In this document: positions 18,082 to 38,079 of the stretch, in pieces
Position numbering within the stretch: the stretch's first letter is position 1
How the letters are laid out: every line of letters begins with the position of its first letter
Origin: a virus
Lineage: Duplodnaviria > Caudoviricetes
DNA length: 38,079 nt
IMG/VR virus record: IMGVR_UViG_3300004240_000023
Coordinates: 1 to 38,079 of that record
Reading direction: 5' to 3' (one strand)
Notes under the pieces: model-generated
Databases searched by the model: none
The model's input: the letters and a program-made list of their open reading frames with translations, nothing else
Told to the model about the DNA's origin: nothing
Translations under genes and position numbers: made by a program

Positions 18082-18578
18082 CCGTCACTTTCTTCTTGAA
18101 GTTTTTGAAGATAATCAACCAGTGAATCAAATGGTTGTAAAACTTTTTTGGGGGCGCTATAGAACCATTCCATGATCTGTCTCTTGTTATCAAATGTATG
18201 AACTTTTCTCCACTGGTTATAGGTCTTTGGAGAAATACAAACTATTCCCCTAGATTTTTGAGAAATCAAAACATAGGCAATAGGTTTTTCAACTTTCGCA
18301 TCAAATCCAGAAACTGTGTCAACAAACAAGGAATCATATGGATACTGCAAAACATCATCAGAAAAGTCTCTTGTTGATGATTTAACTTCCAAGCATTTAT
18401 CAGACCAATCAAAAATAATGTCTTTTTCAAACTTCGTCATCTGATCTCGCTCATAGTCGTTCTGAGCAATCTTCACATCTGGTGCCTCACACCGAATGCC
18501 ACGGCTATTGAGGACTTTGGCTACCTCTTTAGACCAGTATCCCCCAATGTGAAAAGACTCAACATAATCAAATGCCAT
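18075..18578 (-). CDS. Putative PD-(D/E)XK nuclease-fold protein
   Basis: KDII...CLEVKS catalytic-like motif; otherwise unassigned. Confidence 0.5.
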   Translation of the reverse strand: MAFDYVESFHIGGYWSKEVAKVLNSRGIRCEAPDVKIAQNDYERDQMTKFEKDIIFDWSDKCLEVKSSTRDFSDDVLQYPYDSLFVDTVSGFDAKVEKPIAYVLISQKSRGIVCISPKTYNQWRKVHTFDNKRQIMEWFYSAPKKVLQPFDSLVDYLQKLQEESDGW

Positions 18579-19712
18579 TTAATAATCTTCCCCTGCTTCA
18601 ATTGCTTTGAGCCTCATGGTGTGCGCTCTTGTTTTCGGACCCACAGGAGTCGGCGTGGACTGATGGAATTCGTTCAACAGCAATGTTCGTATCAGATATT
18701 CAAGTGGGAACCCATATGGGTCAACCGCCCTTTTTTTACGAAAAGCGGAAGCAAATTTCAAAGCATCCAAACGCATACCCGGGGTCAACATGTGATCGTC
18801 AATGCATTCAGACACGCCATCCCAACCATTGGATGCGTAACTAGAAATTAATGTTTCAATATCAAAGTCAGCCCAATATCTTCGTTGCGCATCTATTTGC
18901 GGAAAACAACGAACAAGTTGATCGTAAAACTCTGGCTCAGTTGCGACAACATCACCAATTCTTCGGATAGCGACAGAGTGAAGTGGGATACCCACACGAC
19001 TATTGCTACCTGTAAGTTCAGCCAAATCGTAGTACTCGCAATATTCGGCTTTATGTTCATCAATAATGAATTTGAGAACATCTTCAGTAGTCCAATCGTA
19101 AATCACTTTGGCAAACTTAAGCGGAATGGATTTTTGTAATAAAAATGGTGAAACTATGTAATTCTCGTGAAGTTTCTGAACACAAGATCTGTAACGCACC
19201 ATTGATTCGTTAGCCCTCACACCCATAACGAAGGCTGTCCTACCCTTTTTGCCTTGCATTGTGTAATAGTCAACAAGATTGGGACAAGGTTTTGATGGAT
19301 CTAAACCAAAATGCTCTGCCCTAATTGCCCACTCGGGCATATCCCTGACCAAACGACCCTCCGCTTTGCGTTGAGGAGACCACAGCAAAACATATTCCCG
19401 TCTCCCCAAAACCCAAATTTCTTGACCCGATGGAAGGCAGTACCACTCCATATCAACCCAGTCGTAGTTGCGGACTTTCTCAACAAAACGGATGACTGAT
19501 GGGCTAACCATTTCCTCGTCACGGAAAATGACTTTTACTTTGCCAAGATTTCTTTCTTCATGAATTTCTTTAGCCAAATAAATTATTGCCGTACTGTCCT
19601 TGCCACCAGAAAATTGGTAGCAAACAGTGTCAAAAGTGTCGTAAACATGACGCAATCTTTCCCGAGCGGCATCAACACATGATGTGTCAAGAAACAGGCG
19701 TTGTCGCGTCAA
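18579..19712 (-). CDS. PAPS-reductase family protein (IbrA-like)
   Basis: PP-loop FSGGKDS, FRDEE, GVRANESMVR, IYDWTTEDV; TTG start with AGGA upstream. Confidence 0.9.
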   Translation of the reverse strand: MTRQRLFLDTSCVDAARERLRHVYDTFDTVCYQFSGGKDSTAIIYLAKEIHEERNLGKVKVIFRDEEMVSPSVIRFVEKVRNYDWVDMEWYCLPSGQEIWVLGRREYVLLWSPQRKAEGRLVRDMPEWAIRAEHFGLDPSKPCPNLVDYYTMQGKKGRTAFVMGVRANESMVRYRSCVQKLHENYIVSPFLLQKSIPLKFAKVIYDWTTEDVLKFIIDEHKAEYCEYYDLAELTGSNSRVGIPLHSVAIRRIGDVVATEPEFYDQLVRCFPQIDAQRRYWADFDIETLISSYASNGWDGVSECIDDHMLTPGMRLDALKFASAFRKKRAVDPYGFPLEYLIRTLLLNEFHQSTPTPVGPKTRAHTMRLKAIEAGEDY

Positions 19713-22203: not shown

Positions 22204-22451
22204 ACGAGTGAAGGGATCTTTGAGTTGAGTGATACTGAAATTCGCACCAATGTGTCAATGCTTGGCGAAAAGTGTCCGTTCTCAATGCGGTTGATCGTCT
22301 TGCGGTCAACACCAGCGATTTCCGCTAATCCTTCTTGACTTAGTTGCAGATTCGTTCGCGAGTTCTTAACCCACTCCGAAATGACTGCTTTGCTTTGATT
22401 TGTTGCTGTTCGCAACTGTGTTTTTGTTGGCGGTTTCGTTGCCTTTTTCAT
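22200..22451 (-). CDS. XRE-family helix-turn-helix regulator
   Basis: LSQEGLAEIAGVDRKTINRIENGHFSPSIDTLVRIS. Confidence 0.95.
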   Translation of the reverse strand: MKKATKPPTKTQLRTATNQSKAVISEWVKNSRTNLQLSQEGLAEIAGVDRKTINRIENGHFSPSIDTLVRISVSLNSKIPSLV

Positions 22452-22490
22452 GTGATTATTCCTTTAGGGTAATAGTGGTATAGGTTTATC

Positions 22491-23795
22491 TCACACGATG
22501 ATAGTGGCTCTTTTCCGCTGAGGCAACCCCAAACCAGTCAAAAAAGTAAACGCCCCTACCGCCGAGTCAACTTGGTCGTCGTGAGTGCAAGCCTCAGGAA
22601 ATGAAGAAATTTCATCAAGCCATTCGGTTATCCACTTTCCGCGAACAAGACGAACGTTTCCATTTGCTACAGCCGCGGCGAATGGTCTTGCCCGTGTTTC
22701 TTTGTCCCCTGACGACCTAATGCCCTGTAAGTCCCAACCCGGAACCACATATCTTGCGTACTGATCTATTAGGGCTTTACCAGACGACCCGGGTTCTTGC
22801 TCCATTCGGATGGCTACGGACTTGCCATCCTCTTGGGCTGTTTGAGAGATGAAAGTTTCAACCTTGTCAGATTTTGCTCGTATTTTTCGGACATCCATGA
22901 TGTAGGCAATCCCTTGGTCAAATAACATAAGGGTTCCGACAGTCCAGTCGGGGTCGGTATTGCCTGAGTGGGGCTCTGTTGCCGCCAAGTCCCAATATCG
23001 CACAGCACGAGCACTACTAGTGATTTCAGGGACGTCGGAGCCATCTATGATCGGAAAATCGGTTCTGTCAAATAATGTCCCAAGAGTAGTAGCCCACCAG
23101 TCACCGAACTCAAGCCTTCTACGCTCAATAGGGTCAAGAACAGACAATGCTTGACGATAAGACTCGGCGTCAATTCCTGGGTTGTCAGTTAAAAATGATG
23201 GAACAAAAAATCTCTCCTCATTTTTGCCCTCTACAATAAATCGTTGCCGAACCCAATTAGGGGCGGGGTTGGAGGCAGAACGCATTCGCAAGGGGACTTT
23301 TGACAAAGGACCCGAAGCAGGGCGACGCAAACGAGAGAACATATACCTGTAATCAGATTCACGAATTTCCGTAACCTCGTCCATACCAATAAATTGAAAC
23401 TCAGAACCCTTATAACGCAAGTAGTCATTTGTGTTATTTAAATAACCAAACGAAATTCGCGCCCCCGATGGGAAGGTCGCCACATAACTATTTGCGTTCC
23501 AATGAACATCATCATGTGCTGAAACCCAGCCACGGAAACGATCCATCAAGGCACCGGGCAAAGCCAAGTCGGCGTATGTGCGACGAAACAAAATGGCAGA
23601 ATAACCGGGGACATCCACATACTGCAAAGCAGACATGAGCAAAGCGGAAGATTTTCCTCCTCCCGCCGCCCCACCAAAAAGACCCTCAAGCGCATAACTT
23701 CTTAAGAAAACTTTTTGAGTAAGCGATGCTTCCTCTGGACAATACAAAGGCTCCTTCGGTTGCAGATACTCATAAATTTTATTCCAGTCAGCCAT
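22491..23795 (-). CDS. terL: Terminase large subunit
   Basis: Walker A GGAAGGGKS, Walker B FIGMDE, SASNP, nuclease WDLAA and HDDQVDS; start set to ATG 23795 with GAGGA upstream. Confidence 0.95.
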   Translation of the reverse strand: MADWNKIYEYLQPKEPLYCPEEASLTQKVFLRSYALEGLFGGAAGGGKSSALLMSALQYVDVPGYSAILFRRTYADLALPGALMDRFRGWVSAHDDVHWNANSYVATFPSGARISFGYLNNTNDYLRYKGSEFQFIGMDEVTEIRESDYRYMFSRLRRPASGPLSKVPLRMRSASNPAPNWVRQRFIVEGKNEERFFVPSFLTDNPGIDAESYRQALSVLDPIERRRLEFGDWWATTLGTLFDRTDFPIIDGSDVPEITSSARAVRYWDLAATEPHSGNTDPDWTVGTLMLFDQGIAYIMDVRKIRAKSDKVETFISQTAQEDGKSVAIRMEQEPGSSGKALIDQYARYVVPGWDLQGIRSSGDKETRARPFAAAVANGNVRLVRGKWITEWLDEISSFPEACTHDDQVDSAVGAFTFLTGLGLPQRKRATIIV

Positions 23796-23822
23796 AAGTC
23801 CTCGTAAATGTAGATGAATACA

Positions 23823-23833
23823 TAATGTAGTAT
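23823..23833 (+). promoter_or_regulatory. Candidate phage promoter TAATGTAGTAT in the divergent intergenic region
   Basis: TRATGTANNNT copy about 37 nt upstream of ATG 23870. Confidence 0.5.
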
Positions 23834-23869
23834 TGAATAGGTCTTTCATTTGCTAAGGTGACGGTCTAA

Positions 23870-24046
23870 ATGGATATTTTTCGCAAACTAAAGTTATTCA
23901 CTAACCGCCGCAATCTAGCAAACTGTCTGATGTCTCTATTCGTGGTAGGTGTCGCTTTGGGTGCTGGTCTTATATTTCCGCCTGCTGGATTTATAACGGG
24001 CGGTATTGCTTGCGGAATCTACGGGTATCTGTTGGGATCTGAATAA
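23870..24046 (+). CDS. Small membrane protein preceding portal (58 aa; absent from the ORF track)
   Basis: MDIFRKLKLFTNRRNLANCLMSLFVVGVALGAGLIFPPAGFITGGIACGIYGYLLGSE*; TAATG overlap with portal start. Confidence 0.75.
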   Translation: MDIFRKLKLFTNRRNLANCLMSLFVVGVALGAGLIFPPAGFITGGIACGIYGYLLGSE

Positions 24047-26253
24047 TGGCTTGGAATAGCAACAACAATAAGGATCTCCGCAACATCGCTGAAAAAGCGA
24101 TGTCCAACCCCGGAGCGCCAGTCGCGTTTGACATGTCTCGTCAAGGCAAACCATATAAAGACGGATGGGATATTGAACGCGCATACCGAGATGGTATGCA
24201 AAAAGTTACATGGGTGTTTCGCTGTATAGACGCAATTGCTGGCAACCAAGCACGCCTGCCAGTCATTCTCCGAAAAGGAAATGATCAACGCGGGGAGAAA
24301 ACAAAAAGCAACGAATCTTTATTAGAAATTTTTAACTCCAAGTCAAACGATGGTGAAAACTCATTTGCTTTTAGATACCGCATATCTGCGCAACTCTTAA
24401 TGAGCACACGAGGCGTGTTTATAGAAAAAGTCCGTTCACGAGACGGAAAAATAATTGCGCTTCAACTTCTACCCCCACAATTTACTGCCCCAATCCCTGA
24501 TCAAAAAAAGTTTGTTTCAGGTTTTGAAGTTGATATGCGCAACGGAACAAAGTTTGTTTTAAAACCAGAAGATGTTTGTTGGATTCGCAGACCACATCCA
24601 TTGGATCCATATCTTTCAATGACACCTATGGAGTCCGCTGGTATTGCAATTGAATTAGAAACACTCGCAAAACTTTATAACCGTAATTATCTGCTGAATG
24701 ATGGACGACCCGGTGGTTTGCTTGTTGTTCGTGGGGATATGGAAGATGACGACAAACAAGAATTAAAAAATCGTTTTAGGGGAAATCTTTCTAAGACTGG
24801 CTCAACAACCGTTATTGCTTCAGAAGCAGGCGTTGATTATGTTGACACATCTGCGTCACCAAGAGACGCGGCGTATTCGCAGATGCGAGAAATTCAAAAG
24901 AATGAAATCTTCGCTGCGTTTGGAGTTCCAGAGTCGGTAATCGGAAACGCCGCTGGTCGGACATTCAGTAACGCCTCAGAAGAACTGCGAGTGTTTTGGA
25001 TGGAGACAATGGCTCCACACCTGCATACAATCGCACGCGCACTTGATGAACTTGACGATAAATATTATGTTGACTTTGATACCGACGACATACCAATTTT
25101 GATTCTTGCTAAACAAGAACGCGAACGATATGTCATGGACGAATTTCAGCAGGGTCTCATTTCTCTAAATGAGTACCGCACAGCAACAGGGCGGAAAAAG
25201 GTTGAATCAGAACTTGCCGATTCGCTTCTTTCTAATCCGAACCTCACACCAATCGCTAATACAGAAAAGCCTTTCAAACCAGAGGAACAGCAACCAGTTG
25301 ATATGGCGGGTGTTGATCCGAACGCTGTACCCGGTGGGCTTCCACCGCAAGACGGTGCAATGGCTATGCCACAGCCAGCCCCACCATCGCCAGTTCCGGC
25401 ACCTGATATGCCAGCAGAAGCACCGACAGAAACAGCAACGCTTACACCAGATCAACAACTTTCCGAATTTGAAAAAATCCAACATGAAATGCAACTCAAA
25501 TTCGTTCAGGAAATTGAAACAAAAGCAGACACCGACACCGACCGTTGGACTGAAATTATTGACCGAGCCCTAGAACGCCTTTTTGAACGACAACAACGAG
25601 TCGTTATGGAGAAAGCATTTGGCAAGCGTGGTGTTAAGGCTCTAGCAAGTGGCGCCCTTACCGTAGACATGGTGTTTGACCCTGATGTGTGGAACAAGCA
25701 ACTTGCAGACGATTTGGAGCCAATCATTTCCGCTATCTACTTGGACGCAAAAGAATATGTCGCCTCGCGCACAAGTGAGCAAGTCACTCTTGACCCTCAG
25801 GAAACAGAGAAACTTGCTCAGCAACAAATTGAACGAATGCAACAAGCAAATACGGGGACGGCAGAAGAAATCGCAGCGGCGATTGCTGTCGCCCTAATGG
25901 AAGAAAACGAAGAAGAAAGATCAACTCTTTTGAGGTTGGCGCTTATCGCAATTTTCCTGAAACTTATCTCTAAGCGAAAGCGAGACATTGCCGAACATGA
26001 GGCGCAGGCTTCATACAACGGAGGTGTTTATTTGGCGGGCAAAGACAGTCAAGGTAATTTCACGAAAACTTGGCTTACACGAAAAGATTCACGCGTTCGC
26101 ACGGCACACAAGTTTCTTGAAGGTAAGACAGTAAACTTTGGCGACGGCTTTGTTGTGGACGGGATGATGTTGCGTTTCCCCGGCGATCCGATAGCCCCAC
26201 CTTCGCTTACTTTCAACTGCCGTTGCCGTCTTCGTTTTGGTTTCAGCGAATAG
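24046..26253 (+). CDS. HK97-family portal protein fused to a MuF-like minor head domain
   Basis: WVFRCIDAIA, NDGRPGGLL, IFAAFGVPESVIG, ISLNEYR; Pro-rich linker; C-terminal KTWLTRKDSRVRTAH...FPGDP...NCRC. Confidence 0.92.
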   Translation: MAWNSNNNKDLRNIAEKAMSNPGAPVAFDMSRQGKPYKDGWDIERAYRDGMQKVTWVFRCIDAIAGNQARLPVILRKGNDQRGEKTKSNESLLEIFNSKSNDGENSFAFRYRISAQLLMSTRGVFIEKVRSRDGKIIALQLLPPQFTAPIPDQKKFVSGFEVDMRNGTKFVLKPEDVCWIRRPHPLDPYLSMTPMESAGIAIELETLAKLYNRNYLLNDGRPGGLLVVRGDMEDDDKQELKNRFRGNLSKTGSTTVIASEAGVDYVDTSASPRDAAYSQMREIQKNEIFAAFGVPESVIGNAAGRTFSNASEELRVFWMETMAPHLHTIARALDELDDKYYVDFDTDDIPILILAKQERERYVMDEFQQGLISLNEYRTATGRKKVESELADSLLSNPNLTPIANTEKPFKPEEQQPVDMAGVDPNAVPGGLPPQDGAMAMPQPAPPSPVPAPDMPAEAPTETATLTPDQQLSEFEKIQHEMQLKFVQEIETKADTDTDRWTEIIDRALERLFERQQRVVMEKAFGKRGVKALASGALTVDMVFDPDVWNKQLADDLEPIISAIYLDAKEYVASRTSEQVTLDPQETEKLAQQQIERMQQANTGTAEEIAAAIAVALMEENEEERSTLLRLALIAIFLKLISKRKRDIAEHEAQASYNGGVYLAGKDSQGNFTKTWLTRKDSRVRTAHKFLEGKTVNFGDGFVVDGMMLRFPGDPIAPPSLTFNCRCRLRFGFSE

Positions 26254-26349: not shown

Positions 26350-28455
26350 ATGCCAACAACACTTTCCGAATCACAGCAATATAAAGCGCTACAAGGTCAA
26401 TTCAATATTGATGAAGCGCAAGGCGTAGTTGAATGCTTCGTCGCAGGCATCGGGAACAAGGACTCCGTAGGCGACATCATCGTGCCCGGAGCATTTACGG
26501 AGAGTCTCAAGCGACGCAAACCTCGCGTTGTATGGGGTCACAACTGGAATGAACCAATTGGCAAAGTACTTGAAATGTACGAAGTACCGCCATCAGACCC
26601 CCGCCTACCGATCAAGATGCGAGCCGCCGGTATTGGCGGTCTCTACGCCAAAGTTCAATTTAACTTGAAATCCGAACGAGGACGTCAGGCTTTCGCCGAT
26701 GTTGCGTTCTTCGGAGAAGAGCAAGAGTGGAGCATCGGATACAAAACATTAGATGCAGATTTTGATCCACAGCGTCAAGCAAATGTTCTCAAAAAAGTAG
26801 AACTGTACGAGGCAAGCCCTGTGCTTCATGGTGCTAACCAACTGACAGGAACAATCTCAATTAAGTCTGTTGAATCACACGACGGCACAGAAGCAAAAAT
26901 GCATATGCGTGACGAGAATGGCAAACTGACAGAACAGGGTCGCTCCCTCCTAATGCGAATTCTTGCAAATGCTCAACAGCAGAAACCTCGTGAAGAGGAA
27001 GAAGACGATGATGACGCAATTGACGCACCAATGCCAGAAAAAGGTCGCAAAGAAAACCTGCCCCTTGCGCTAGCAAAAAAATTCGGTGGAGCAGTTCGTG
27101 TAAGAGAATCTGACGCAAACAGCGTAATATTTGACCACAGGGGAAACCATGAAGGCATTATTACTATGCGCGTTTCCTACCATTTTGAAAATGGTCAATT
27201 CATGTTCGGAGATGCAACACGCGTAAAGCCCCAAATTGTATACATCAACGACGATGGTGATACACCTAGCGGTTCCGACGGTGAAAGACGCTATGAAGAT
27301 CGCTACCGAATGGATGAAGACCCACAAGTACCAGCAGGCGTAAAACCAAAGTCACCCGAAAAGGCTGACCCACTTGGCGGAATCATCCCTCAGGAAATTG
27401 TGACGGCACGAACCCGTGGATACGGTCCACGCCGAGGGAACCTTGAAAAGTTGTTGCGTTACTGGCGCCCAATCATGCGCAAACCGGGCGGGTTTCGTCG
27501 CTGTCGCGTAATTCTCGCCAACCACCCCGAGTTGTTCCCTCTTAGCAATATCTGTGCGTGGCTACACCATGAAACAACTGGTCTCTGGCCGAACGAAGGG
27601 TGCCATCACCCCGGTATGAAAAATTGCCGCGGGAAATTGCGTAAACAAAATTGGGACGACTCTCAATTCAACGAGCGACTATCACGCTTGATCAAACCCG
27701 GAAAATCCCTTGAATCCCTTGATGAGCAGGAAATCAAGTCAATCTTTGACTTCCTAGATAGCGAAGAAAAAGGTTATGAAATGATGGAGCAACTCGCTAA
27801 TCGCCTTGCCGAAGAAGATCAGCCCAAGGGTGAGCAAGAAATGCAACTTGAAGACGTTGAGTTTGAAAACGAAGATGAAGGCAACGAGAAGGCTTATGAG
27901 GCTCTCAAAGAGTTTATGAACGCTGAGCCGGACTTCATCAATTATATGGCTGACAAAGACAACTGGGTCATGGAGGGCGAAGATGACAATGGGTCGGTTG
28001 TTGAAATGCCATACAACCGAGGCTCAGACGATGACGACTGCGGATGCGGTGGCGGTGGCAAAAACCCAAAACAAATGATCGGGATGCTCATGGCGGCGAT
28101 ATCCGAAATGATGGGCAAAGACGCCGAGCAGGACATTGAAGTCAAGGCTGGTCGCGTAATCAATTCACGAAATATGGCGAAACTACAGAACGCTTTCAAT
28201 CTTCTCAAAGAAGTGCTGAACGCTGGCGGTGCGGTTTCCGATATTGAAGCCAAATCTCTTGCTCCTAACGAAAAAGAAACACTTCTCATTTCGTCTCCAG
28301 AGCGTTCACTTTATGAGGTGAAAGAACTCTTGGATCCGATTTTGGATTACTACCAAATCAAATCTGAAGTCACGGAAGAAGGTGTGCAGGTTGAAATCGG
28401 TGATGTTGAAGAAGACGCTTTTGAAGCACTACTTAACATCATGGACACAATGTAA
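26350..28455 (+). CDS. HK97-family prohead protease with long multidomain C-terminal extension
   Basis: DSVGDIIVPGAF, WGHNWNEPIGK (His), WSIGY (Ser), LYEASPV; KAGRVINSRN motif late in the protein. Confidence 0.93.
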   Translation: MPTTLSESQQYKALQGQFNIDEAQGVVECFVAGIGNKDSVGDIIVPGAFTESLKRRKPRVVWGHNWNEPIGKVLEMYEVPPSDPRLPIKMRAAGIGGLYAKVQFNLKSERGRQAFADVAFFGEEQEWSIGYKTLDADFDPQRQANVLKKVELYEASPVLHGANQLTGTISIKSVESHDGTEAKMHMRDENGKLTEQGRSLLMRILANAQQQKPREEEEDDDDAIDAPMPEKGRKENLPLALAKKFGGAVRVRESDANSVIFDHRGNHEGIITMRVSYHFENGQFMFGDATRVKPQIVYINDDGDTPSGSDGERRYEDRYRMDEDPQVPAGVKPKSPEKADPLGGIIPQEIVTARTRGYGPRRGNLEKLLRYWRPIMRKPGGFRRCRVILANHPELFPLSNICAWLHHETTGLWPNEGCHHPGMKNCRGKLRKQNWDDSQFNERLSRLIKPGKSLESLDEQEIKSIFDFLDSEEKGYEMMEQLANRLAEEDQPKGEQEMQLEDVEFENEDEGNEKAYEALKEFMNAEPDFINYMADKDNWVMEGEDDNGSVVEMPYNRGSDDDDCGCGGGGKNPKQMIGMLMAAISEMMGKDAEQDIEVKAGRVINSRNMAKLQNAFNLLKEVLNAGGAVSDIEAKSLAPNEKETLLISSPERSLYEVKELLDPILDYYQIKSEVTEEGVQVEIGDVEEDAFEALLNIMDTM

Positions 28456-28509
28456 ATAATCAAACTATTTTTGTGTTGGTTTCAGTTGTAACAAAAACAA
28501 AAGACTAAT

Positions 28510-30003
28510 ATGAGTTATACTTCAATAACAGGTTTACCACAAAAAACAGCAAAGTATCAGTGTTTGATGTCAGGCGAAAAACGCTTGACACCTTGCTCTG
28601 TTTGCTCTAATCCATCAAAGTGCATTGCCAAAACAATGCACTACAAGGAGTCCACGAACATGGCTAGCGAAACACCGACAGTGAAACTTTTAGCAGACGG
28701 CGGAATTGAGTGCGCTAAAGGTCTAGAACTTAAAGACTGTGGCTACAAGCCCGGTGCAAAAGTTTGTGGCAAGTGTGGAGCAAAGGCTGTCACGCAAACA
28801 GAAGAAGCAGTTCCTACTGACGCCGCACCAGAAGTTGCCGCGCCAAGAGCAGGAGAAAAATCAGAATGGGTCACCGCTGCTGATGAAAAAGGTGCAAAGT
28901 TGGAGGAAGACATTGCAATGATGGATGAAGAGACACCAACCCCTGTCGCTAAAAAGAAAAAGAAGCCAGCCGAAGTTGTTGAAATGATGGAGGCTGACGA
29001 AGAAGAAGACGACATGCCAGAAGATCTTGACGACGACGAAGAAAAAATGTATGCCGAAATTGAAAAAATGATGGAACAAAGGAAAAAGGCTCGTGCTAAG
29101 CGCATGGAGACAATGGGAGTCAAGTCGGCAGACTACGACGATCTTGCTTTTGTCTGCGCAATTGAACGACGTGTTTATGCTGGCGGTTCAGAAATATGCG
29201 CATCATGCCCAGGTGGTTGCGAACAGCAAGACACAATGCCAAGTCTTCTTGAAATTGAAGGTATGGCTGAAAGCATGTTCGCAGGAAAAGTTTTGGACTC
29301 TGGCTACGCAGACGAAGTAGATATTTTCGTTGTAGATGTTCAACGCAAAGATGGAAAACCAGTTGAAGCGTACTTTGATGGATCAAGTGGTGAATGCATG
29401 GGCTGGCACCTTCTCAACGAAGACCTCATTGGTGAAGTAGCAACCATCCCCGGACAAAAAGTAATTTCGTTCAGTGAAGCATCTTCAATCGCAACAAAGT
29501 CAATTGAAGGCGAAGTTGTTTCCGTTGATGCAGACATGTTTGACGGTTACGACGCCTACGCTGTAGAGATTGAAGGCTTGGATGGAAAGTCTTACGATGT
29601 CTATGTCGGAGTGGACGGAGAAATCCTCGGCTTTGACGAATACGATCCTGAAGAAGCCGCTGACATTGACGAAGAAGTAGCCGACATTGCTTTGAAAGCC
29701 ATGTACAGCGAAGATGAGCGCATGGAAATGGCTAAGGGTGGAATGGCTCTACCTGATGGATCATACCCAATCAAGGATGAAGAAGACCTCAAGAACGCCA
29801 TCATGGCTTATGGTCGCGCGAAAGACAAGACCAAGGCAAAGGCGCATATCAAGAAGCGTGCGATGGATCTTGGTAAAGAAGACATGATTCCAGAAGAGTG
29901 GGATGCTGAAGAAAAAGTTCTTCTTGACGATGAAGCAAAAGAGTTCTTGAGCAGTCTGATGGAACTTGAAATGCTTGAAATTGAAACAGGTCTTGACAAG
30001 TGA
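28510..30003 (+). CDS. Acidic head-associated protein: Cys4 motifs, two PepSY-like repeats, ALPDGSYPI domain
   Basis: ISFSEASSIATKSIEGEVVSVD...YAVEI...DGKSYDVYVGVDGEIL fits PepSY; alternative start ATG 28660 has AAGGAG. Confidence 0.8.
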   Translation: MSYTSITGLPQKTAKYQCLMSGEKRLTPCSVCSNPSKCIAKTMHYKESTNMASETPTVKLLADGGIECAKGLELKDCGYKPGAKVCGKCGAKAVTQTEEAVPTDAAPEVAAPRAGEKSEWVTAADEKGAKLEEDIAMMDEETPTPVAKKKKKPAEVVEMMEADEEEDDMPEDLDDDEEKMYAEIEKMMEQRKKARAKRMETMGVKSADYDDLAFVCAIERRVYAGGSEICASCPGGCEQQDTMPSLLEIEGMAESMFAGKVLDSGYADEVDIFVVDVQRKDGKPVEAYFDGSSGECMGWHLLNEDLIGEVATIPGQKVISFSEASSIATKSIEGEVVSVDADMFDGYDAYAVEIEGLDGKSYDVYVGVDGEILGFDEYDPEEAADIDEEVADIALKAMYSEDERMEMAKGGMALPDGSYPIKDEEDLKNAIMAYGRAKDKTKAKAHIKKRAMDLGKEDMIPEEWDAEEKVLLDDEAKEFLSSLMELEMLEIETGLDK

Positions 30004-30278: not shown

Positions 30279-30290
30279 TTGGAGGAGACG

Positions 30291-31967
30291 ATGACTAAAT
30301 CGTCTCGCGCCTTTGACGCCAACGAAAGGGTCGCACAGTATCTTGATTCTGTTGCAACCGTTCAAGCGAACGTTCTTTTATTTAAAGGCTTTCTAGGTCC
30401 AACAATCAAGGACAAACCCGAATTGGGTTCTGTCGGTGCACGCGCAGCCCGAGCCGCTGGCGTAGTAGTTGACGCCTCAGGGAAACTTCGTTGCCCACCG
30501 GGGACACCTAACGCCAACCAATTTACCGACATGCAAATGTCCAACTGTTTAGTTCCTAGTGCCGAAACGGCAGCGCGTGGAGCGGCTTCTATGGCAGGGA
30601 AACTTATTGATGGTGCCAAAGGCATATTAAAAAGCGAAAACGTAAGAAACGGCGCAAAAGCAACAGCACTCTTGGCTTTACAAACATTGGATTACATGCA
30701 TGTAGACGGTTCAGGTTCCCTTACTGATTCCACACTCATGAGCGCGATGCTATTGAGGGCAGGTGGGGCGCAACTGTTGGATTTTGCTTCTGATTCGCTC
30801 CATAAACGAGGCAAAATATCTGACAAGAAAAAAGAACAGTTGGAAGCGGTTGCATCAAAACTCAAAAAAGATGCTGCGGTTGACGCAAGAAACTTTGTAC
30901 TAGCAAGCCTGAAAAAGCGTAAAGATAAAAAAGAAAAAGAAAAAGAACTTGATGATGTACGCACCCCTACAGATGACATCGCTGAGGCAAAGGAAACTGG
31001 AAGACCATTGAAGATGCTTCTAGTTGGGACTTTCCCGAGTTCGGTACAAGATAAGTATGATCGTTCGTTGCCATTAATCCAAGATCCAAATACACCAGAC
31101 AGCGAAGTAACAGATCTTATGGACGCTTACGCAAAAATAGCAACAACTGAATACGGAAATCTAGGTTTCAATTCAGATGAAACAAAAATAATTGTTGAAG
31201 CCCAAGTTGATTTACTCAGACATAAAAGATGGCAAGCACAAACTAGAGCCGGAAACGTCACCGCCTTTGATGAAAATTTTAGTGAAGAGCGTCGTTTGCA
31301 AACAGCAAAAGAAACCATAGAAAACTCGCGGGTGACAATTGCTGTACAACCTGATGTTTTAGACAAAATACTTGAATCTGGTCGTTTCAAATCGCAGTTT
31401 GAAACAGGTACATCTATGGGCACTTTGGATTTTGGTCAACGCGCACAATCAGAGGCTGTTCAGTTGGGGTACCACCCAAGTGTTGAACCCTCAAAGCGTC
31501 CTATTTACGGATATCTCACTCAAAATGGACAGATTGACCGTAATTCGTTGACCGAAGTCAGAATGTATGGTGCCGTTCAGTTAATGATGAAAAAAGATAT
31601 TGAGTCACGTTCAACATATACGGGAGGAGACAGTCTTGGAAGACCCACCTACAAACCAGCACCAATTGGCACACCAAGCGCAGATGCGGTTTGGAGCCCA
31701 CACAAAATTGAATACGCCGAAGCACAATTACACGGAGGTGTATCCGTAGGAGATGTTGAACTTGCCGTTATAGCAGTTGACGACAATGACCCATTCGGCA
31801 ACAGCGTTACTGAAAAAGACTTTGAAAGCATCAGAGAAAAACTTGAAAAAGCGGGTATCCGTGTTGAACCTGTAAGAAAAAATCAAAAGTTTGATGTGCA
31901 GTCGGGGACAATCATGGATGTCGTAAAAACAGAACAACAATTAAGAGAGGAACAATCAGTTGTATGA
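30291..31967 (+). CDS. RCP-motif protein with C-terminal DUF3626-like (ADP-ribosyltransferase-like) domain
   Basis: GGAGGAG SD before ATG 30291; GRFKSQFETGTS, RPIYGYL, YG, YAEAQLHGGV motifs recalled for DUF3626. Confidence 0.75.
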   Translation: MTKSSRAFDANERVAQYLDSVATVQANVLLFKGFLGPTIKDKPELGSVGARAARAAGVVVDASGKLRCPPGTPNANQFTDMQMSNCLVPSAETAARGAASMAGKLIDGAKGILKSENVRNGAKATALLALQTLDYMHVDGSGSLTDSTLMSAMLLRAGGAQLLDFASDSLHKRGKISDKKKEQLEAVASKLKKDAAVDARNFVLASLKKRKDKKEKEKELDDVRTPTDDIAEAKETGRPLKMLLVGTFPSSVQDKYDRSLPLIQDPNTPDSEVTDLMDAYAKIATTEYGNLGFNSDETKIIVEAQVDLLRHKRWQAQTRAGNVTAFDENFSEERRLQTAKETIENSRVTIAVQPDVLDKILESGRFKSQFETGTSMGTLDFGQRAQSEAVQLGYHPSVEPSKRPIYGYLTQNGQIDRNSLTEVRMYGAVQLMMKKDIESRSTYTGGDSLGRPTYKPAPIGTPSADAVWSPHKIEYAEAQLHGGVSVGDVELAVIAVDDNDPFGNSVTEKDFESIREKLEKAGIRVEPVRKNQKFDVQSGTIMDVVKTEQQLREEQSVV

Positions 31968-32164
31968 AAAATCAACATTTAGCCAACGTGCAACACATAG
32001 CCAACAGAGGCAAAGATAAACTTTTTTACACTCATGACAGCCCTGTGGAGGGTGTGTCTAGGCGAATGGGTTTCATACAAATGGCAAACGGCGTTCATAT
32101 GGAAGTCATGATTGACTCGGTTCTTTCCCGAGGATATTGGGAGACAGTAAAACAAAACGACTAA
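31964..32164 (+). CDS. Small protein coupled to the ART-like gene (candidate immunity)
   Basis: ATGA overlap; 66 aa; function inferred from position only. Confidence 0.6.
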   Translation: MKNQHLANVQHIANRGKDKLFYTHDSPVEGVSRRMGFIQMANGVHMEVMIDSVLSRGYWETVKQND

Positions 32165-32205
32165 AACCGTCGGCTAATACACAAATATTCAGGAAGGCAT
32201 CAACC

Positions 32206-32214
32206 TGATATTCT
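32206..32214 (+). promoter_or_regulatory. Extended -10 TGATATTCT
   Basis: TGn-TANNNT in the intergenic gap before 32291. Confidence 0.35.
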
Positions 32215-32290
32215 TTAGATAGCGGGTTGGTGCCCAGTATGCAATGGGAAAATCCCTGCCAGATCAATTAGCACCTAAAGAATTGACAAA

Positions 32291-34015
32291 ATGACCAATT
32301 ACCTCAACCAAGACTTTGAGCATTTCGCAAGGAAACTCCGCATGTCCATGCGAGAGAAAACGTTGATGAAGCGAACCAACCTTGTTTCAGGTGATGAATT
32401 GTACTTCAACCCCGAAAATGTGAAAGCACGTTTTATTTTCACTAGCGGATCAGATTTGCGTAAAGCGCCATTAAACGGCAGTAGGGCTTTGCTCAACTTC
32501 AAAGCAAAACTTTATATGAAGGCTCGTATTTCTAAATTGGGTGCCGAAACATTTATCGGTGATGAAACAAAACGTGGCGGTTTAGGAAAATGGTTTGAAG
32601 AAGAGTGGGTTGATATATCTCGCCCTAAAAAGGGTGGCGGGTTTGAGCCGTGTGGGCGGAATGATGCCGACTCTGGCAAGTATCCAAAGTGTGTAAAGAA
32701 ATCAACCGCGATGAGAATGACAGCAGAGGAGATTGATTCGGCTGTGCGCCGAAAGCGCCGAGCAGAAACATCGGAGAGCCGTGACGAAAATAAGCCAATC
32801 AATGTGTCCACATTTAAAGCAGACGAAGCAGATTCGGTAAAGGGTGTAAATATTCCTACTGACCCCGAATTGTATGCGCGAGTAAAAGCAGAGGCAAAGA
32901 AAAAATTTGCTGTATACCCATCTGCTTATGCAAATGCTTGGCTTGTTCGCGAATATAAAAAGCGTGGTGGTGGATACCGCACAGGAAAACAAAACGAATC
33001 AGAAGATATTGACATCAAAGCAGGAACTATTGGTGCAAGTTCGGGAATAGGTCGCGCCATTCAAGGAATTGGATCAACTCTTACACCCGGGAATATCTCC
33101 CCTATCACCTCCCCCATTCGTTCACGTATTTATGGTGCGCTAGTACCGGGTGGCGGTGGCGGAGCGTTGAGCCGTCTTAAGCCAAACCGCAAACGTCAAG
33201 CAAGATGTCCTGCTGGCTTTGAATTTGGCGGAAGATTCACAGACAACCGTTTTTCTACATGTGGAGCACAACTTTTTGAAATACCGGGTCCGCTAGCGCT
33301 CGCTGCTCGCGCGATACGAGCCACAACGGCACCAAAACTTCCACAAGCAAGAGCAGAAAATCTTTCAGAAGTATTAGAAGGCTCACCAACAAGTGCGCGG
33401 ACAATACAAATTCAGCGCATGGCGCAAATCCCACGAACAGGCGCATTTCAGAAAGATAAATTCAATCGCTCGGTAGGGGAATCAATAAAACTTCTTAAAG
33501 GCGCACCCGCTGGTGAAGGAAGAATGATTCGCCGAGATGGTGTTGTACTGCGACCAGTTGTTCCGTCATCTGTTCTACGTTCATTCAGCGAAAACCCCGA
33601 CATGGTTGACGGCGCAATGGTTCGCGCTATTCAACTACCAGCAGATATTGGCGCAGATGATTTAGCGCTTCTCGGCGGTCCGTCAATGAGCAAGATTGCA
33701 TTCGTTGCTCCCAATGGTGTGACTGTAAGCATTGAACGATCTCGCCCATTTACGATCGGTGAAAAACGCAAATTCCCACGCATGATTAACTCGCTAGCAG
33801 AATCAAGCAATAAAGACAACATCATCAAAAATGTAGAAGACTTTGCTAAAGCATCTGAAGGTGCTTTCAAATTCTCGGTTGACACCGCAAACATTCCCGA
33901 CGCTCTTCAACTTGTTGAATACACAGGTTTGGATGGTGTGAAACGCGAGGCTCCCCGCTGGCTGTATGAAACATTCATCAAACCAGATCTTGCCAAGGAA
34001 AGAAAGAAAAAATAA
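32291..34015 (+). CDS. Multidomain RCP-motif protein with DUF5872-like modules
   Basis: GLGKWFEEEWVD..PCGR..YPKC and PTDPELYARVKAEAKKKFAVYPSAYAN..VREYKKRGG; RCPAGFEFGGRFTD. Confidence 0.75.
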   Translation: MTNYLNQDFEHFARKLRMSMREKTLMKRTNLVSGDELYFNPENVKARFIFTSGSDLRKAPLNGSRALLNFKAKLYMKARISKLGAETFIGDETKRGGLGKWFEEEWVDISRPKKGGGFEPCGRNDADSGKYPKCVKKSTAMRMTAEEIDSAVRRKRRAETSESRDENKPINVSTFKADEADSVKGVNIPTDPELYARVKAEAKKKFAVYPSAYANAWLVREYKKRGGGYRTGKQNESEDIDIKAGTIGASSGIGRAIQGIGSTLTPGNISPITSPIRSRIYGALVPGGGGGALSRLKPNRKRQARCPAGFEFGGRFTDNRFSTCGAQLFEIPGPLALAARAIRATTAPKLPQARAENLSEVLEGSPTSARTIQIQRMAQIPRTGAFQKDKFNRSVGESIKLLKGAPAGEGRMIRRDGVVLRPVVPSSVLRSFSENPDMVDGAMVRAIQLPADIGADDLALLGGPSMSKIAFVAPNGVTVSIERSRPFTIGEKRKFPRMINSLAESSNKDNIIKNVEDFAKASEGAFKFSVDTANIPDALQLVEYTGLDGVKREAPRWLYETFIKPDLAKERKKK

Positions 34016-36697
34016 ATGCTTCGCAATGAAGTTAATTTCAAGGCGCTAACGTTTCTTTCAGAACAGACCGCTAGTACTTTTAATTATGAGGTTAAAGGTA
34101 CACGCGCTATTTGGGATCCAAGCCTCTCAATTCCGGGGACAAACCGTCGCGGTGGATGGCGGTGCCCTGTCGGTACGCGTTATGGTGGTCAGATTACTGA
34201 CCGCTTTGGGCGGTCATGTGGATGGGGTGTGGCGCGACGCATCGCGAATCAAATCGCCGATATTGGTGAGCGTTTAGAGAGTATTGATGATCGTAAACGA
34301 AATAATCGTCTCGCTAAAAGAAATGCTCGTATGCAAAGATTTTTGGCTCGCCAGCAGAAACCCGGATTGCTTGAGCGTGGCGCACGAAACATTGCAGAAG
34401 CACTTGAGGGTGGACAGACGCCACGACAAGTTAGACCCGCCGCACGCCCTGCTCGGCGTCAACCATTGGGAGGAATGATTGACCCAAATACAGGACGTGT
34501 TATCCCCCTAAGACCAGACCCCGTCATAGAACAGGCACGAGAGGTAATAGAACAAGCGAGAAATCCTCGTGCCCCTCGTAGGAGAAGAGGAAATCTTCGC
34601 GAATCGGAACAGCGAAGAATGGAACGCGAATTAGTACAACCCGGTGCACCAAGAACTGGCGAGCCACCGAAACCAAACGCACCAAGACGACGCCGACGAG
34701 TCGCCGCACAACAAGGCGCACAACGAGTAGCGAGACGTAAACCTGAAGCAGATTTTATTGACGGTGCACAACCTGAAAGACCAATTGTTGCCCCACGGCG
34801 AGTTGATCCAGTTGAAGCGCGTAGACAATATATAGAAAAACTTGATGCCGACTTGGCAAAACGCAAAAAAGAGGCGTTGCGCAACAGACCAGAAGGCATC
34901 AGCGATCGTGAGTGGAAAAAATATAAAGAGCATGTGAACGGGATCAAAAATCAATATGGATATGGCGGAAATGACAGAGTCGCCAATATTCCTTCATACG
35001 AAGAGTTCAAACAATTTGACGAAAGAATTCAACGGGCTGCTGACGAGGCTCTCGGTCGCAAAAAACCACAACCAGCAAAACCATCAACCCCAATTCCATC
35101 ACCACCACCATGGAACCCTGACGCAGAACCAGCAAAACCGAAAGCACCTGCACGACCAGCACCACCACCACTACCAGCGCTAGATATTGCACCCGACAGG
35201 GAATTCAACAAACCAGAAGATAGACCAGTTGTTCAAGCAGTAGTAGATGACGTTGAACGATACAAGCCCAACGCTTACAACAATTTGCGTAACAAACCAA
35301 AGGAAGAAGTTTTAGGCAAGAAAATTCAAGACCAAGAACTTCTCAAACGGGCTCAAGAGGGTTTTGATGAAGCGTACAAAGTCTGGCGAGAAAAACAGAA
35401 TGGAACCCCTCAAGAACGAGAACAAGCACGAGACAATTTGTTGCGCATGTGGCAGCAAAAACAAAAAATTAAACAAAATATTGATGCCGCCGACTTGAGG
35501 ATTGCGGAAATTGATGCGGGTATTGAATTCAGACAACGACCCGCTGTTGCAGGTGGGAACAACAATGTTCAAGCCCCTAACGCTCCACGAGTACAGCCAC
35601 CTGACAGACCAGCGGAAATACCCGAGCCAGAGGGCGGTTGGGATGTCTCCCCGCCAACAGCAAAAGCAGATCACGCACCAGAAAAACTAAACGCTAAAGG
35701 CGCTGATGGTCTACCTGACGTAAAACCTGTGCCCGTCGGTAATAAAGGAATTGATACTAAAGATAAAGCGGTTGCGCACCTCAACCAAGGAGGAGATCTA
35801 GCAGATGTTCCAGACGACTTCTTGGGTGATGCTTTGCATGGGGCAACACAAAGATTTGATAAAGAAGCCGCTGGCGGTGGTGTCAACGGGAATATTCCTG
35901 ACAACATGTTTAAATTCACGGACAAAGTAACTGGAAAACAATATTTCTTGAAATATCAAACTGGCGCACAGGCTGAGAACGAAGACATTCACGAAATGGT
36001 CGGCAACAATATTGCTGGAAGATTTGGCATGCCAGTAGGCGGATTGCGTCTTGACGGAAAACAGAAAGGTGGTCCTGGTGCTCCTCACAGCGCAGGGCGT
36101 TCAATAGTTTTTGAACACGCTGGAAATTATGTTGATGGCAGGCTTCGCCAAGGAAGAGATGTTGCAAATATGGGCGACATCAAACCAGCAGACAGAGTTA
36201 GAGCAACTTTAATGGATTTTGTGATTGTTAACAGAGATCGTCACGGCGGCAACTTCTTCGTTGCGCCAGATGATAACGGGAAACTCCGATTTGTACCTAT
36301 TGATCCATCTTTAGGTTTTGATGTGAATTGGGGAGGAAGAGATTTTGAGGGGTTTGGCGGGGATGACGCTGGCTTCGTTGCTTGGATGAATCACAGTTAT
36401 GGTGGTGGACGTAATGAAATGCTTAGGACTTTGCGCCAACAACACCGTCAGGGACAACTAAGCCGACGCGAAGTTATCGCAGCAATCGCTGATGTACAGA
36501 AATCAATCCGTGAGGCTGAAAGAAAAAACCCGTATCTGAACATGGTTGACGAAGTGCTCAAAGCGGGTGGAGATGGAACCCCGAATCCGCGATCTGGAGA
36601 TAGAGCACGAGATAGGATAGGCATCAAACCTCAAGAAAAAATGAAATACATAACGGATGTTGACCCATCTCGTATAGCCGATTTGATACTAGGATAG
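34016..36697 (+). CDS. RCP-motif protein with Arg/Pro-rich linker and C-terminal HipA/PI3-PI4-kinase-like domain
   Basis: GGGVNG loop, YFLKY, HE, DFVIVNRDRHGGN, VPID motifs. Confidence 0.85.
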   Translation: MLRNEVNFKALTFLSEQTASTFNYEVKGTRAIWDPSLSIPGTNRRGGWRCPVGTRYGGQITDRFGRSCGWGVARRIANQIADIGERLESIDDRKRNNRLAKRNARMQRFLARQQKPGLLERGARNIAEALEGGQTPRQVRPAARPARRQPLGGMIDPNTGRVIPLRPDPVIEQAREVIEQARNPRAPRRRRGNLRESEQRRMERELVQPGAPRTGEPPKPNAPRRRRRVAAQQGAQRVARRKPEADFIDGAQPERPIVAPRRVDPVEARRQYIEKLDADLAKRKKEALRNRPEGISDREWKKYKEHVNGIKNQYGYGGNDRVANIPSYEEFKQFDERIQRAADEALGRKKPQPAKPSTPIPSPPPWNPDAEPAKPKAPARPAPPPLPALDIAPDREFNKPEDRPVVQAVVDDVERYKPNAYNNLRNKPKEEVLGKKIQDQELLKRAQEGFDEAYKVWREKQNGTPQEREQARDNLLRMWQQKQKIKQNIDAADLRIAEIDAGIEFRQRPAVAGGNNNVQAPNAPRVQPPDRPAEIPEPEGGWDVSPPTAKADHAPEKLNAKGADGLPDVKPVPVGNKGIDTKDKAVAHLNQGGDLADVPDDFLGDALHGATQRFDKEAAGGGVNGNIPDNMFKFTDKVTGKQYFLKYQTGAQAENEDIHEMVGNNIAGRFGMPVGGLRLDGKQKGGPGAPHSAGRSIVFEHAGNYVDGRLRQGRDVANMGDIKPADRVRATLMDFVIVNRDRHGGNFFVAPDDNGKLRFVPIDPSLGFDVNWGGRDFEGFGGDDAGFVAWMNHSYGGGRNEMLRTLRQQHRQGQLSRREVIAAIADVQKSIREAERKNPYLNMVDEVLKAGGDGTPNPRSGDRARDRIGIKPQEKMKYITDVDPSRIADLILG
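34037..34279 (+). repeat. Copy 1 of diverged 243-nt direct repeat (81-aa conserved domain)
   Basis: Ungapped match to 37478-37720; 69/81 aa identical by hand count. Confidence 0.95.
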
Positions 36698-36705
36698 TAA
36701 CTATT

Positions 36706-37002
36706 ATGAGGGCTGCGATTATCACTTCAAAAGACCCGTTAGTTCAGGCTTCCCCCATTGTCATCGTTGAGGACGATAAGGGGATAATTACCTATTATTC
36801 AAAAAACCGTGAACAAGACAAGAGGGATAATGAGCATTTCCTAAATATGCGGAAATCATCACCCAAAATGGCGACACTTGAAAATATGCTCCACGGATAT
36901 TCGTATCTGCATTCTGAAATCTTAAAATACGATGGTTCCAACAAAGATACAATTAATAGTTTTCTCGTTCAATTAGGGCACCAAAAACTAGACAGCAAAT
37001 AA
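36706..37002 (+). CDS. Small protein after the kinase gene (candidate immunity)
   Basis: 98 aa, starts 8 nt after the kinase stop; function inferred from position. Confidence 0.65.
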   Translation: MRAAIITSKDPLVQASPIVIVEDDKGIITYYSKNREQDKRDNEHFLNMRKSSPKMATLENMLHGYSYLHSEILKYDGSNKDTINSFLVQLGHQKLDSK

Positions 37003-37041
37003 TATATTTACATTACCGTAAATTTAGTATCCCCCTATTAG

Positions 37042-37050
37042 TGATACCAT
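37042..37050 (+). promoter_or_regulatory. Extended -10 TGATACCAT
   Basis: TGn-TANNNT in the intergenic gap before 37124. Confidence 0.35.
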
Positions 37051-37123
37051 TTTACTGTAGCGATATTGCGACGCAAGACTTTTAGGGCTTGCTCAATGCC
37101 TTCACGAATGTGGAAAGTAAACA

Positions 37124-38079
37124 ATGAACCTAGTTTTCATTATCAAGAACCGTGACAACACACCATTTATGGTTGTTTCAACGACCCCAAAGGGATCCAC
37201 ATTCAAGCCGATGACCGAAGACGCGAAGGAACTTGTAGGAATACTCCGCGAAGAATACGCAAACACACCTATCACCAAACCCGAACTCGTTCAGTCAATG
37301 GACGCATCAAAAATTATTGAAGGTCCTAGCCCGTCCGGAACGGCTGTTCAGAAAAAAGTTGCGTCGCTTTCAGCAAATAGTGGAGAAGCAGAAGTTATAA
37401 ATACTCTGCCAGTTTTATCAATCTCCGAAGTATTGCTGTCAGAGTTCTCTAATGAAGAATTCGCAAGTGTTTTAAGTTTCAAAGCCGCTTCTTTCATCTC
37501 AGACCAAACACGCTCATCGGCGAACTTTGAGATTAAAGGCGTCCGCGCAGTATGGGATCCAAGTCTTTCAATTCCGGGCACGAACCGTCGCGGAGGTTTT
37601 CGCTGCCCTGTTGGAACAAGATATGGTGGACAGATAACCGACCGTTTCGGTCGTTCCTGCGGTTGGGGTGTAGCGCGAAGAATTGCAAACCAAATTGCCG
37701 ACATCGGTGAACGGTTAGAACAACGAGATGACGACAAACGCAAACGCAGACTTGATCGCCGTAATGCACGAATGATTCGCCGTCTTGGTGGTGTTCCTGA
37801 AACTGGTCGCGTTGAGGGTGGTCTGCGTAATATTGCCGATCGGCTAGATGGTGGTGGAGAAACACGCGCACCACGGCGTCGCAACCCTGAACGTGAGGCT
37901 CGCCGACAAGAAGCAGTAGATTTTTTCCGCGAGTTTGGTGGTGCTGTACGAGATGACATAGACAGCATTCGTAATAGGCGACGACCACAAAGAAACGAAG
38001 AAACGCCCGAAGTTGAAGCCCCATCGGCACGCGCCCCTCGCAACCGTCGTCGTGATGTAATACCAGAAACAGCACCAAC
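37124..38079 (+). CDS. Fourth RCP-motif protein, 3'-truncated by the window; absent from the ORF track
   Basis: Open from ATG 37124 (MNLVFIIKNRDNTPF...) to the end; contains WDPSLSIPGTNRRGGFRCPVGTRYGGQITDRFGRSCGWG. Confidence 0.92.
   Translation, partial: MNLVFIIKNRDNTPFMVVSTTPKGSTFKPMTEDAKELVGILREEYANTPITKPELVQSMDASKIIEGPSPSGTAVQKKVASLSANSGEAEVINTLPVLSISEVLLSEFSNEEFASVLSFKAASFISDQTRSSANFEIKGVRAVWDPSLSIPGTNRRGGFRCPVGTRYGGQITDRFGRSCGWGVARRIANQIADIGERLEQRDDDKRKRRLDRRNARMIRRLGGVPETGRVEGGLRNIADRLDGGGETRAPRRRNPEREARRQEAVDFFREFGGAVRDDIDSIRNRRRPQRNEETPEVEAPSARAPRNRRRDVIPETAP
37478..37720 (+). repeat. Copy 2 of diverged 243-nt direct repeat
   Basis: Ungapped match to 34037-34279. Confidence 0.95.

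Follow-up and report, generated by a model that had tools for sequence, protein, structure and literature searches.

Enzyme cassettes behind a Cys-bounded RCP loop in the head operon of an uncultured lake-phage family: probably packaged cargo, with the loop as a putative handle on the mature proteins

The right-hand end of a viral DNA stretch from the IMG/VR collection (record IMGVR_UViG_3300004240_000023; Duplodnaviria, Caudoviricetes; its whole length of 38,079 nucleotides is called here the window) raises the question of what a short Cys-bounded loop, R-C-P-x16-C or RCP loop, does in a row of genes that encode different enzymes. An earlier note on this DNA had taken the loop for a capsid-loading tag. 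The answer preferred here, with a probability of about 0.55 for the chain as a whole, is that the genes form cassettes of enzymes that are packed, freed by the head protease and injected, with the loop left on them as a handle. Within that chain, the packaging of the RCP enzymes in the prohead is rated as very probable.

A six-frame scan of the window yielded exactly four R-C-P-x16-C matches, each in one of the four open reading frames (ORFs) of the array, named slots A, B, C1 and C2. The four Cys-to-Cys peptides of the earlier note were all recovered where it had placed them, each with an Arg before it, the RCP unit being thus of 20 residues (the Arg plus the 19-amino-acid (aa) peptide). The four large ORFs were also confirmed, but small ORFs of 66 and 98 aa stand between large ones. 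The features of the array are as follows:

30279..31967, plus strand: slot A, RCP leader plus SopF-family (DUF3626) ADP-ribosyltransferase-like cargo; likely start, ATG 30291
30384..30386, plus strand: Lys36 of slot A, predicted cut K/G
30489..30548, plus strand: RCP loop of type A (six-frame scan), with the protein's only two Cys
30955..32270, plus strand: swappable cassette of cargo plus partner gene (blastn collinearity breaks and resumes)
31964..32164, plus strand: 66-aa partner of the DUF3626 cargo, likely immunity protein (family S8, solely behind this cargo allele)
32291..34015, plus strand: slot B, core member, with small head modules (DUF5872), RCP loop and JAB-like domain
33017..33019, plus strand: Lys243 of slot B, predicted cut K/A
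33203..33262, plus strand: RCP loop of type B (six-frame scan)
33449..33889, plus strand: JAB/MPN-like domain of slot B, probably inactive (weak fold matches, ligands absent)
34016..36697, plus strand: slot C1, with pro-region, RCP loop, Arg/Pro-rich linker and PI3/4K- or HipA-like kinase
34094..34096, plus strand: Lys27 of slot C1, predicted cut K/G (invariant in 39/39 slot-C leaders)
34160..34219, plus strand: RCP loop of type C (six-frame scan), with the protein's only two Cys
35720..36694, plus strand: kinase domain of C1, with intact Gly loop, Lys, Glu, D-R-H-x-x-N and metal-binding Asp (columns invariant in 16/16 rows)
36706..37002, plus strand: 98-aa partner, predicted kinase inhibitor (immunity); co-varies with the kinase subfamily, complex model
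37124..38079, plus strand: slot C2, ending at the contig edge; kinase in 12/13 close orthologues
37535..37537, plus strand: Lys138 of slot C2
37601..37660, plus strand: RCP loop of type C, second copy (six-frame scan)

The array, made up of two to five RCP genes, stands after the protease gene and before the capsid gene in a large, uncultured family of lake phages. A profile of the RCP motif gave five matches in the complete genome G001 and four in G004, all of them in the head operon and scoring 48–62 bits, the next best score being only 5.5 bits. A scan with the slot-C leader (275 clusters at 50% identity) recovered 41 IMG/VR loci of the same gene order with up to five RCP genes, and a pattern for divergent forms added 17 loci, all in the head operon, with a core of slot B and at least one slot C. 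The general motif pattern matched 154 loci in 14 of the 64 parts of the collection, from which about 590 IMG/VR stretches were estimated. Its 123 distinct contexts were all, as judged by eye, of array type A, B or C; in loci of at least 4 kb, 58/75 contexts had a recognised head gene no more than 5 kb away and the remaining 17 were B- or C-type genes within long arrays. Two repeat zinc-ribbon proteins (P0142 and P0148), which stood among 150 listed matches, were removed as false before the profile, Cys and domain counts. The expectation that the motif would be confined to head operons, in several copies per genome, was thus borne out, and no broad occurrence outside head modules was found among these phage loci. 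In 185,579 bacterial and archaeal genomes there was a single weak match, in a 36-aa frame (L115), taken as chance. Conservation extends beyond the 19 aa, with a beta-hairpin predicted upstream of the loop in slots A and C.

What changes from one relative to another is the cargo behind the leader. The median identity is 77% in the leader and 20% in the tail of slot A, and 93/43%, 96/25% and 94/58%, respectively, in slots C1, C2 and C3. In slot B the tail is as conserved as the leader (medians 84% and 83%, with 0/120 tail pairs below 35%), so this slot is not polymorphic, and the idea of four polymorphic C-termini was dropped. The claim that the C-termini are unrelated holds as far as a constant leader is followed by a swapped tail in A, C1 and C2, but not for the nearly invariant slot B nor for slot C, where only two enzyme families occur; besides, the four C-termini of the window are probably not all unrelated, because the fourth ORF is a kinase in those 12/13 close orthologues. 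Similarly, the scheme of a conserved N-terminus, a variable toxin and a small downstream gene applies to slots A, C1 and C2 and fails for slot B, which has no partner gene.

The cargo of slot A matches PF12294 with 40.7 bits (cut-off 27), including the conserved Glu segment, and its profile matches PDB entry 7dn8 (expectation value E of 0.001) across the segment Y-x-E-x-[HQ]-x-H-G. In the DUF3626 alignment, Tyr155 and Glu157 are invariant in 14/14 rows. An I-Y-E triad is named for the SopF ADP-ribosyltransferases in PMC10333799. Close relatives carry, behind the same slot-A leader, a kinase, an HExxH domain, a divergent DUF3626 domain or no cargo. When L005, L012, L029 and L002 were compared with the window by blastn, they were collinear with it up to about 30930–30955, broke off, and resumed at about 32130–32270. 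The cassette in between is replaced by unrelated DNA in the first three and is absent from L002, where the slot-A allele (7384–8124) consists of the leader only (246 aa), without cargo or partner gene. Since collinearity breaks and resumes around both genes, it can be said that the cargo and its small gene are exchanged together.

Some further observations concern this slot. In L008 (4876–7961) and L019 the slot-A kinase is split after its N-lobe by about 400 aa that end in a ParB-like domain, and the C-lobe resumes in the ORF that follows, which looks like the insertion of a second cargo within the kinase gene; the apparent partner in these two loci is the second half of the interrupted kinase and was excluded from the partner count. 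DUF3626 also occurs in phage-like proteins behind other short headers that end in G-R-F-like turns (P0272, P0275, P0276, P0277, L162 and L189), a recurrence that makes the SopF family look like a repeated choice of head cargo. Exonuclease, Nudix or KTSC domains were found in distant slot-A and fused proteins (L241, L314, L307 and L298), whose lengths run from 1,200 to more than 2,200 aa; 18/22 proteins of this kind had no Pfam match.

Concerning slot C, the kinase of C1 falls below the PF00454 cut-off in the window (E of 0.071) and above it in relatives (up to 34.4 bits), its catalytic and metal-binding Asp residues being followed by about 130 helical-looking residues. The catalytic loop is intact in 84/87 kinase domains. 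Among 132 long slot-C representatives, a single kinase was found in 70, a single GNAT-like domain in 47, more than one domain in 13 and neither in two; the GNAT-like identity of the last-slot cargo of relatives is to be taken as a lead. A quick tree of 45 rows suggested some seven deep kinase lineages, with different lineages behind near-identical leaders. GNAT-like and kinase domains may stand in one chain, and at least two effector domains were found in those 13 slot-C relatives and in L114; each complete array protein of the window has one enzyme. Very large slot-C proteins also occur (P0081, of 4528 aa, and P0042), one representative being made up of seven GNAT-like repeats and a kinase. 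The pro-region of slot C shows a conserved [FY]-K-A-x-x-F ... E-V-K pattern. A fold search with the slot-C leader model (predicted template-modelling score, pTM, 0.38) returned only helix matches and members of the same family, with no usable match in the Atlas.

Of 122 complete genes, 63 of slot C and 23 of slot A are followed by a small gene. In 14 of 16 multi-member cargo clusters all members had the same partner family; one family accompanies related kinases whether the leader is of type A or C, and no enzyme class has a partner family in common with another. So, the partner tracks the cargo rather than the leader. The complex of the window kinase with its 98-aa partner was modelled with a score of 0.77, as compared to 0.00 for the best of three controls; the score mark was attained by 116/157 solved pairs and by 2/215 mismatched pairs. 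Contact agreement between runs was at least 79% in the kinase-partner models, and the predicted local distance difference test (pLDDT) of the partner was at least 84. The modelled interface covers the Gly loop, catalytic Lys78, the catalytic loop Asp173–Asn178 and metal-binding Asp195. According to this model the 98-aa protein would likely plug the kinase active site, as an immunity protein, and an effector-immunity reading of the cargo/partner pairs seems probable in general. The RCP loop was found in 0/84 partners. No orphan toxin-immunity cassette was noticed in the gene lists, in which no systematic search for them was made.

The predicted slot-B domain (pTM 0.73) had as its top VIA match the JAMM protein 1r5x (Z 4.8, root-mean-square deviation 3.9, 88 residues aligned), and many MPN chains ranked high, all with weak scores. 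Foldseek matched it to models named 'Minor capsid protein' (E of 4e-4) and gave no PDB match at E ≤ 0.001. No His occurs among the conserved columns of 22 slot-B domains, where the H-x-H...D zinc ligands of JAMM proteins were looked for. The guesses of an ADP-ribosyltransferase and a kinase in the earlier note were supported by profile and active-site comparisons, and its guess of a degenerate JAB domain agrees with these weak fold matches. There are no partner genes behind slot B, two apparent cases being truncated slot-C genes that were left out. In distant phages (L022, 7905–9899; L039, 7437–9653; L102–L108) slot B ends in a degenerate kinase-like domain, which the window slot B does not have.

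Each loop is preceded by a Lys followed by Gly or Ala, as had been pointed out before: K36/G in slot A, 34 residues ahead of the Arg; K243/A in slot B, 61 ahead; and K27/G (C1) and K138/G (C2), each 21 ahead. The distance is constant within one residue in 23/23 slot-A proteins. Each slot has its own strongly conserved pro-region N-terminal to the Lys, and sites of this kind are common to the portal, protease and capsid proteins. The loop begins at residues 49–305, C-terminal to the predicted cut and thus not at the extreme N-terminus. If the cut is real, the loop would stay on the mature protein.

A cysteine-free pattern, R-V-P-x-G-x3-G-G-[QE]-F-[TA], retrieved headers with RCP-like spacing in 119 stretches (93 distinct contexts, 72 of them with [HQ][PA] before the header); in L117 and L151 there are Cys on both sides, in a different register. 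Thirteen of the 65 cysteine-free header proteins scanned (68 with long loci) carry portal, MuF or protease domains, many carry ADP-ribosyltransferase, zeta, kinase, DUF3626, Nudix or topoisomerase domains, and 28 gave no match. In unrelated phages this header precedes effectors that include DUF3626 and PI3/4 kinase. A D-x-D-G-D-G header occurs at like positions in the clade of the window, with three units in one protein (L114). Since headers recur once per unit, and also on cargo tied to the portal, a role after loading fits better than loading, and the loop is probably, to judge from sequence, a retained handle on mature cargo.

The cargo genes are ordered as pro-region, Lys, basic stretch, RCP loop, long Arg/Pro-rich linker and enzyme, with the small gene behind. 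It seems reasonable to interpret this order as follows. The pro-region would bring the precursor into the prohead and then be removed, as with the capsid targeting sequences of T4, and the head protease would cut at the conserved Lys and free the enzyme. The loop would fold as a hairpin closed by its two Cys, through a disulfide or a shared metal, and might dock the mature cargo on portal, core or DNA and order its exit, with the invariant slot B as a likely core partner of docking. During late-infection synthesis the small protein is predicted to block its own enzyme; as it has no RCP loop, it would likely be left behind, so that the enzyme becomes active only in the next cell. Once injected, the kinase, acetyltransferase-like, ADP-ribosyltransferase and peptidase cargo would modify proteins of the host, and may disarm defences or redirect host machinery. 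A bolder extension would see in the hairpin R-x-P-x-G-x3-G-G-x-F a signal for ejection that portal-packaging phages use in general and that portal or core recognises after protease maturation, with the RCP loop as its redox-switched form, locked by a disulfide in the virion and freed in the host cytoplasm. This extension is speculative and rather unlikely; if it were true, a lytic phage could deliver a whole set of kinases and transferases that have left their inhibitors behind.

Several points weigh against the packed-and-injected reading with a retained loop or limit what speaks for it. For the specificity of HK97-type proteases, which cut after Lys, the literature searched gave no fitting source, and many relatives have K/R at the Lys site. 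Lys sites are enriched about 2.7-fold in the head proteins of G001 and G004 (18 versus 6.5 expected and 13 versus 5.0) and not elsewhere (19 versus 21.5 and 12 versus 17.2 in other frames), but this count is not independent, because the pattern was picked after viewing these proteins. The Cys content beyond the loop is as low as 0.013% (20 in 153,030 residues, with zero Cys in 136/147 representatives), as compared to 0.41% in tail and neck proteins and 1.04% in non-structural proteins, a depletion which partly reflects the status of virion protein, because the major capsid protein is Cys-poor too (0–1 per about 435 aa). The loop was modelled as a hairpin with low to middling confidence (pLDDT around 50 and around 75). 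The RCP profile scores weakly on the cysteine-free motif (median 1.8 bits), so that homology between both headers would follow from spacing and context. The GNAT-like label is based on motifs and on a single Atlas cluster, 20% of whose members have PF00583, and Pfam and PDB profile searches of that domain gave no match. Finally, in tblastn searches of 50,697 phage records for cultured relatives, the slot-C leader and the slot-B domain had 0 matches and the slot-A motif a single one, with E=6.

The preferred reading has to be weighed against three others. If the RCP loop were itself what loads the cargo into the capsid, binding scaffold, portal or capsid interior during assembly and retained like a MuF domain, this would agree with its being the sole element common to all three leader types, with six invariant residues across them, and its persistence after cleavage would be compatible with such a role. 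However, the motif of the same spacing occurs also where the cargo already forms one protein with a portal, MuF or protease domain, the polyproteins P0108, P0116, P0128 and P0135 carry two loops, one per unit, where one would suffice, and it is N-terminal to the Lys that each slot has its strongly conserved, slot-specific pro-region. The loading tag of the earlier note is thus doubtful, while its view of the motif as independent of MuF was supported in so far as none of the four proteins has a MuF domain.

On a structural interpretation, the RCP proteins would belong first of all to the inner core or the ejection apparatus; the loop would serve assembly, for example as a clasp that joins subunits through zinc or a disulfide, and the enzymes would be passengers of an optional kind. 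This would account well for slot B, which does not vary, was found in each of the 17 distant loci and resembles minor capsid protein domains, for the fusion of B and C in some phages and for the long helices that follow the loop in the models. It accounts poorly for slot A, which is absent from distant loci or, in L002, reduced to its leader, for a slot-C copy number that varies from 1 to 3, and for intact active sites with co-varying cognate partners; it is considered improbable. Least probable is that the enzymes are not packed and act late in the infected cell, on lysis timing or rival-phage exclusion, the loop being a localisation or folding module. Fast-diverging toxin-immunity pairs, such as the kinase lineages of the quick tree suggest, would also fit intracellular conflict between phages, but the location of the array between protease and capsid genes, the Lys sites common to portal, protease and capsid, the fusion of the same modules to head proteins and the extreme Cys depletion argue against it.

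The rest of the window is consistent with a head operon of a myovirus. Its left part contains contractile-tail genes, with sheath (PHROGs, E of 8.5e-41), tube and baseplate. Pfam PF17482 detected no tail sheath in five relatives, a result outweighed by the PHROGs match in the window, by which the phage is taken as a myovirus. In the right part, the divergent terminase is followed by portal-MuF, S78 protease, a PepSY-like protein and the RCP array, so the placement given in the earlier note, after portal-MuF and protease, was right; in relatives, an HK97-type major capsid gene lies 3′ of the array. The genes upstream of the array are:

22491..23849, minus strand: terminase large subunit, divergently transcribed (Pfam Terminase_6C/6N)
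24046..26253, plus strand: portal with C-terminal MuF domain and no toxin extension (Pfam PF04860, PF04233)
26350..28455, plus strand: S78 prohead protease with add-on modules (Pfam PF04586)
28510..30003, plus strand: acidic PepSY-like conserved head-operon protein (PepSY match weak and under the cut-off; syntenic in distant loci)

The S78 protease would be the enzyme cutting at the Lys sites, and the acidic PepSY-like protein is a possible scaffold. The WRPIM module of the protease is also fused to the slot-B proteins P0152, P0160 and P0247. Many small Cys- or Lys-rich modules, DUF5872 among them, separated by Lys sites, shuttle among protease, slot B and pre-capsid genes (window 26350–30003 and 32291–33020; L023, 8758–9540; L104, 14512–17754). 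At 22451–24046 of the window, terminase and tail genes on the minus strand diverge from the portal operon, and the guanine-cytosine skew switches. At 17527–19712 a ParB-like gene adjoins a PAPS-reductase-like gene, possibly as a DNA-modification module. PADLOC and NCBIfam gave nothing useful for the RCP array.

WhiB, a marker of actinobacterial phages (PMC6802176), is present in 5/5 long relatives, and the host of the clade is probably an actinobacterium. Neither tyrosine integrase (PF00589) nor serine recombinase (PF07508) was detected in five relatives, four of them at least 90% complete; the lifestyle is probably lytic, and a prophage-toxin reading was dropped because no integrase was found.

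How tailed phages select the proteins that they pack and eject is known for few cases, and a short, near-invariant loop on dozens of unrelated cargoes offers a handle for tests and possibly a tag for phage protein delivery. The array suggests that kinase-inhibitor cassettes are part of the virions of abundant, probably lytic actinophages of fresh water, toxin-immunity pairs having come so far mainly from temperate MuF phages, and a SopF relative in a phage head operon bears on the origin of such effectors. No description of the RCP motif was found in the literature searched, which excludes subscription papers and supplements; among these, the domain lists of Iyer et al. 2017 may bear on its novelty.

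The proposal of a new system was overstated, because T4 capsid targeting, MuF polymorphic toxins and polyvalent proteins follow the same logic. In T4, internal proteins IPI–III and Alt bear a capsid targeting sequence in their first 10 residues that the prohead protease removes (PMC9026906). T4 internal proteins share with the array a short leader, unrelated variable cargo that includes an ADP-ribosyltransferase, protease cutting and injection, the last two being predicted for the array; it differs in its internal loop, predicted to be retained, its HK97-type head, the predicted cut after Lys and the cognate partner genes. With MuF polymorphic toxins (PMC12226406) it shares the conserved N-terminus, the variable C-terminal enzyme, the downstream gene of (here predicted) immunity and the head module. 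However, MuF is found here only on the portal, without toxin, and in none of 50 array proteins of relatives (PF04233), the paralogues are two to five in tandem, and those toxins were described from temperate phages, in contrast to the five relatives free of integrase and serine recombinase. Polyvalent proteins are likewise large, come from the head region and bear peptidase, ADP-ribosyltransferase, kinase and GNAT domains; their injection has been proposed (Iyer et al. 2017, PMC5512222; PMC9503650). Their kinase clade has no C-terminal subdomain and belongs to other phyla, unlike the full PI3/4K- or HipA-like domain found here, and the available text of PMC5512222 mentions no RCP-like header motif. 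SopF is a Salmonella type III effector of the DUF3626 family that acts on the V-ATPase (PMC6682159, PMC10333799); the slot-A cargo resembles it by the DUF3626 match over cut-off and the profile match to 7dn8, and differs in that the phage domain has about 220 aa and is the product of a head operon, where a partner gene accompanies it. What the window contributes is that cargo and partner are swapped as a cassette and co-vary, one partner being predicted to inhibit at the active site; that one cargo is of the SopF family; that slot B is invariant; and that the RCP loop can be linked to the cysteine-free header.

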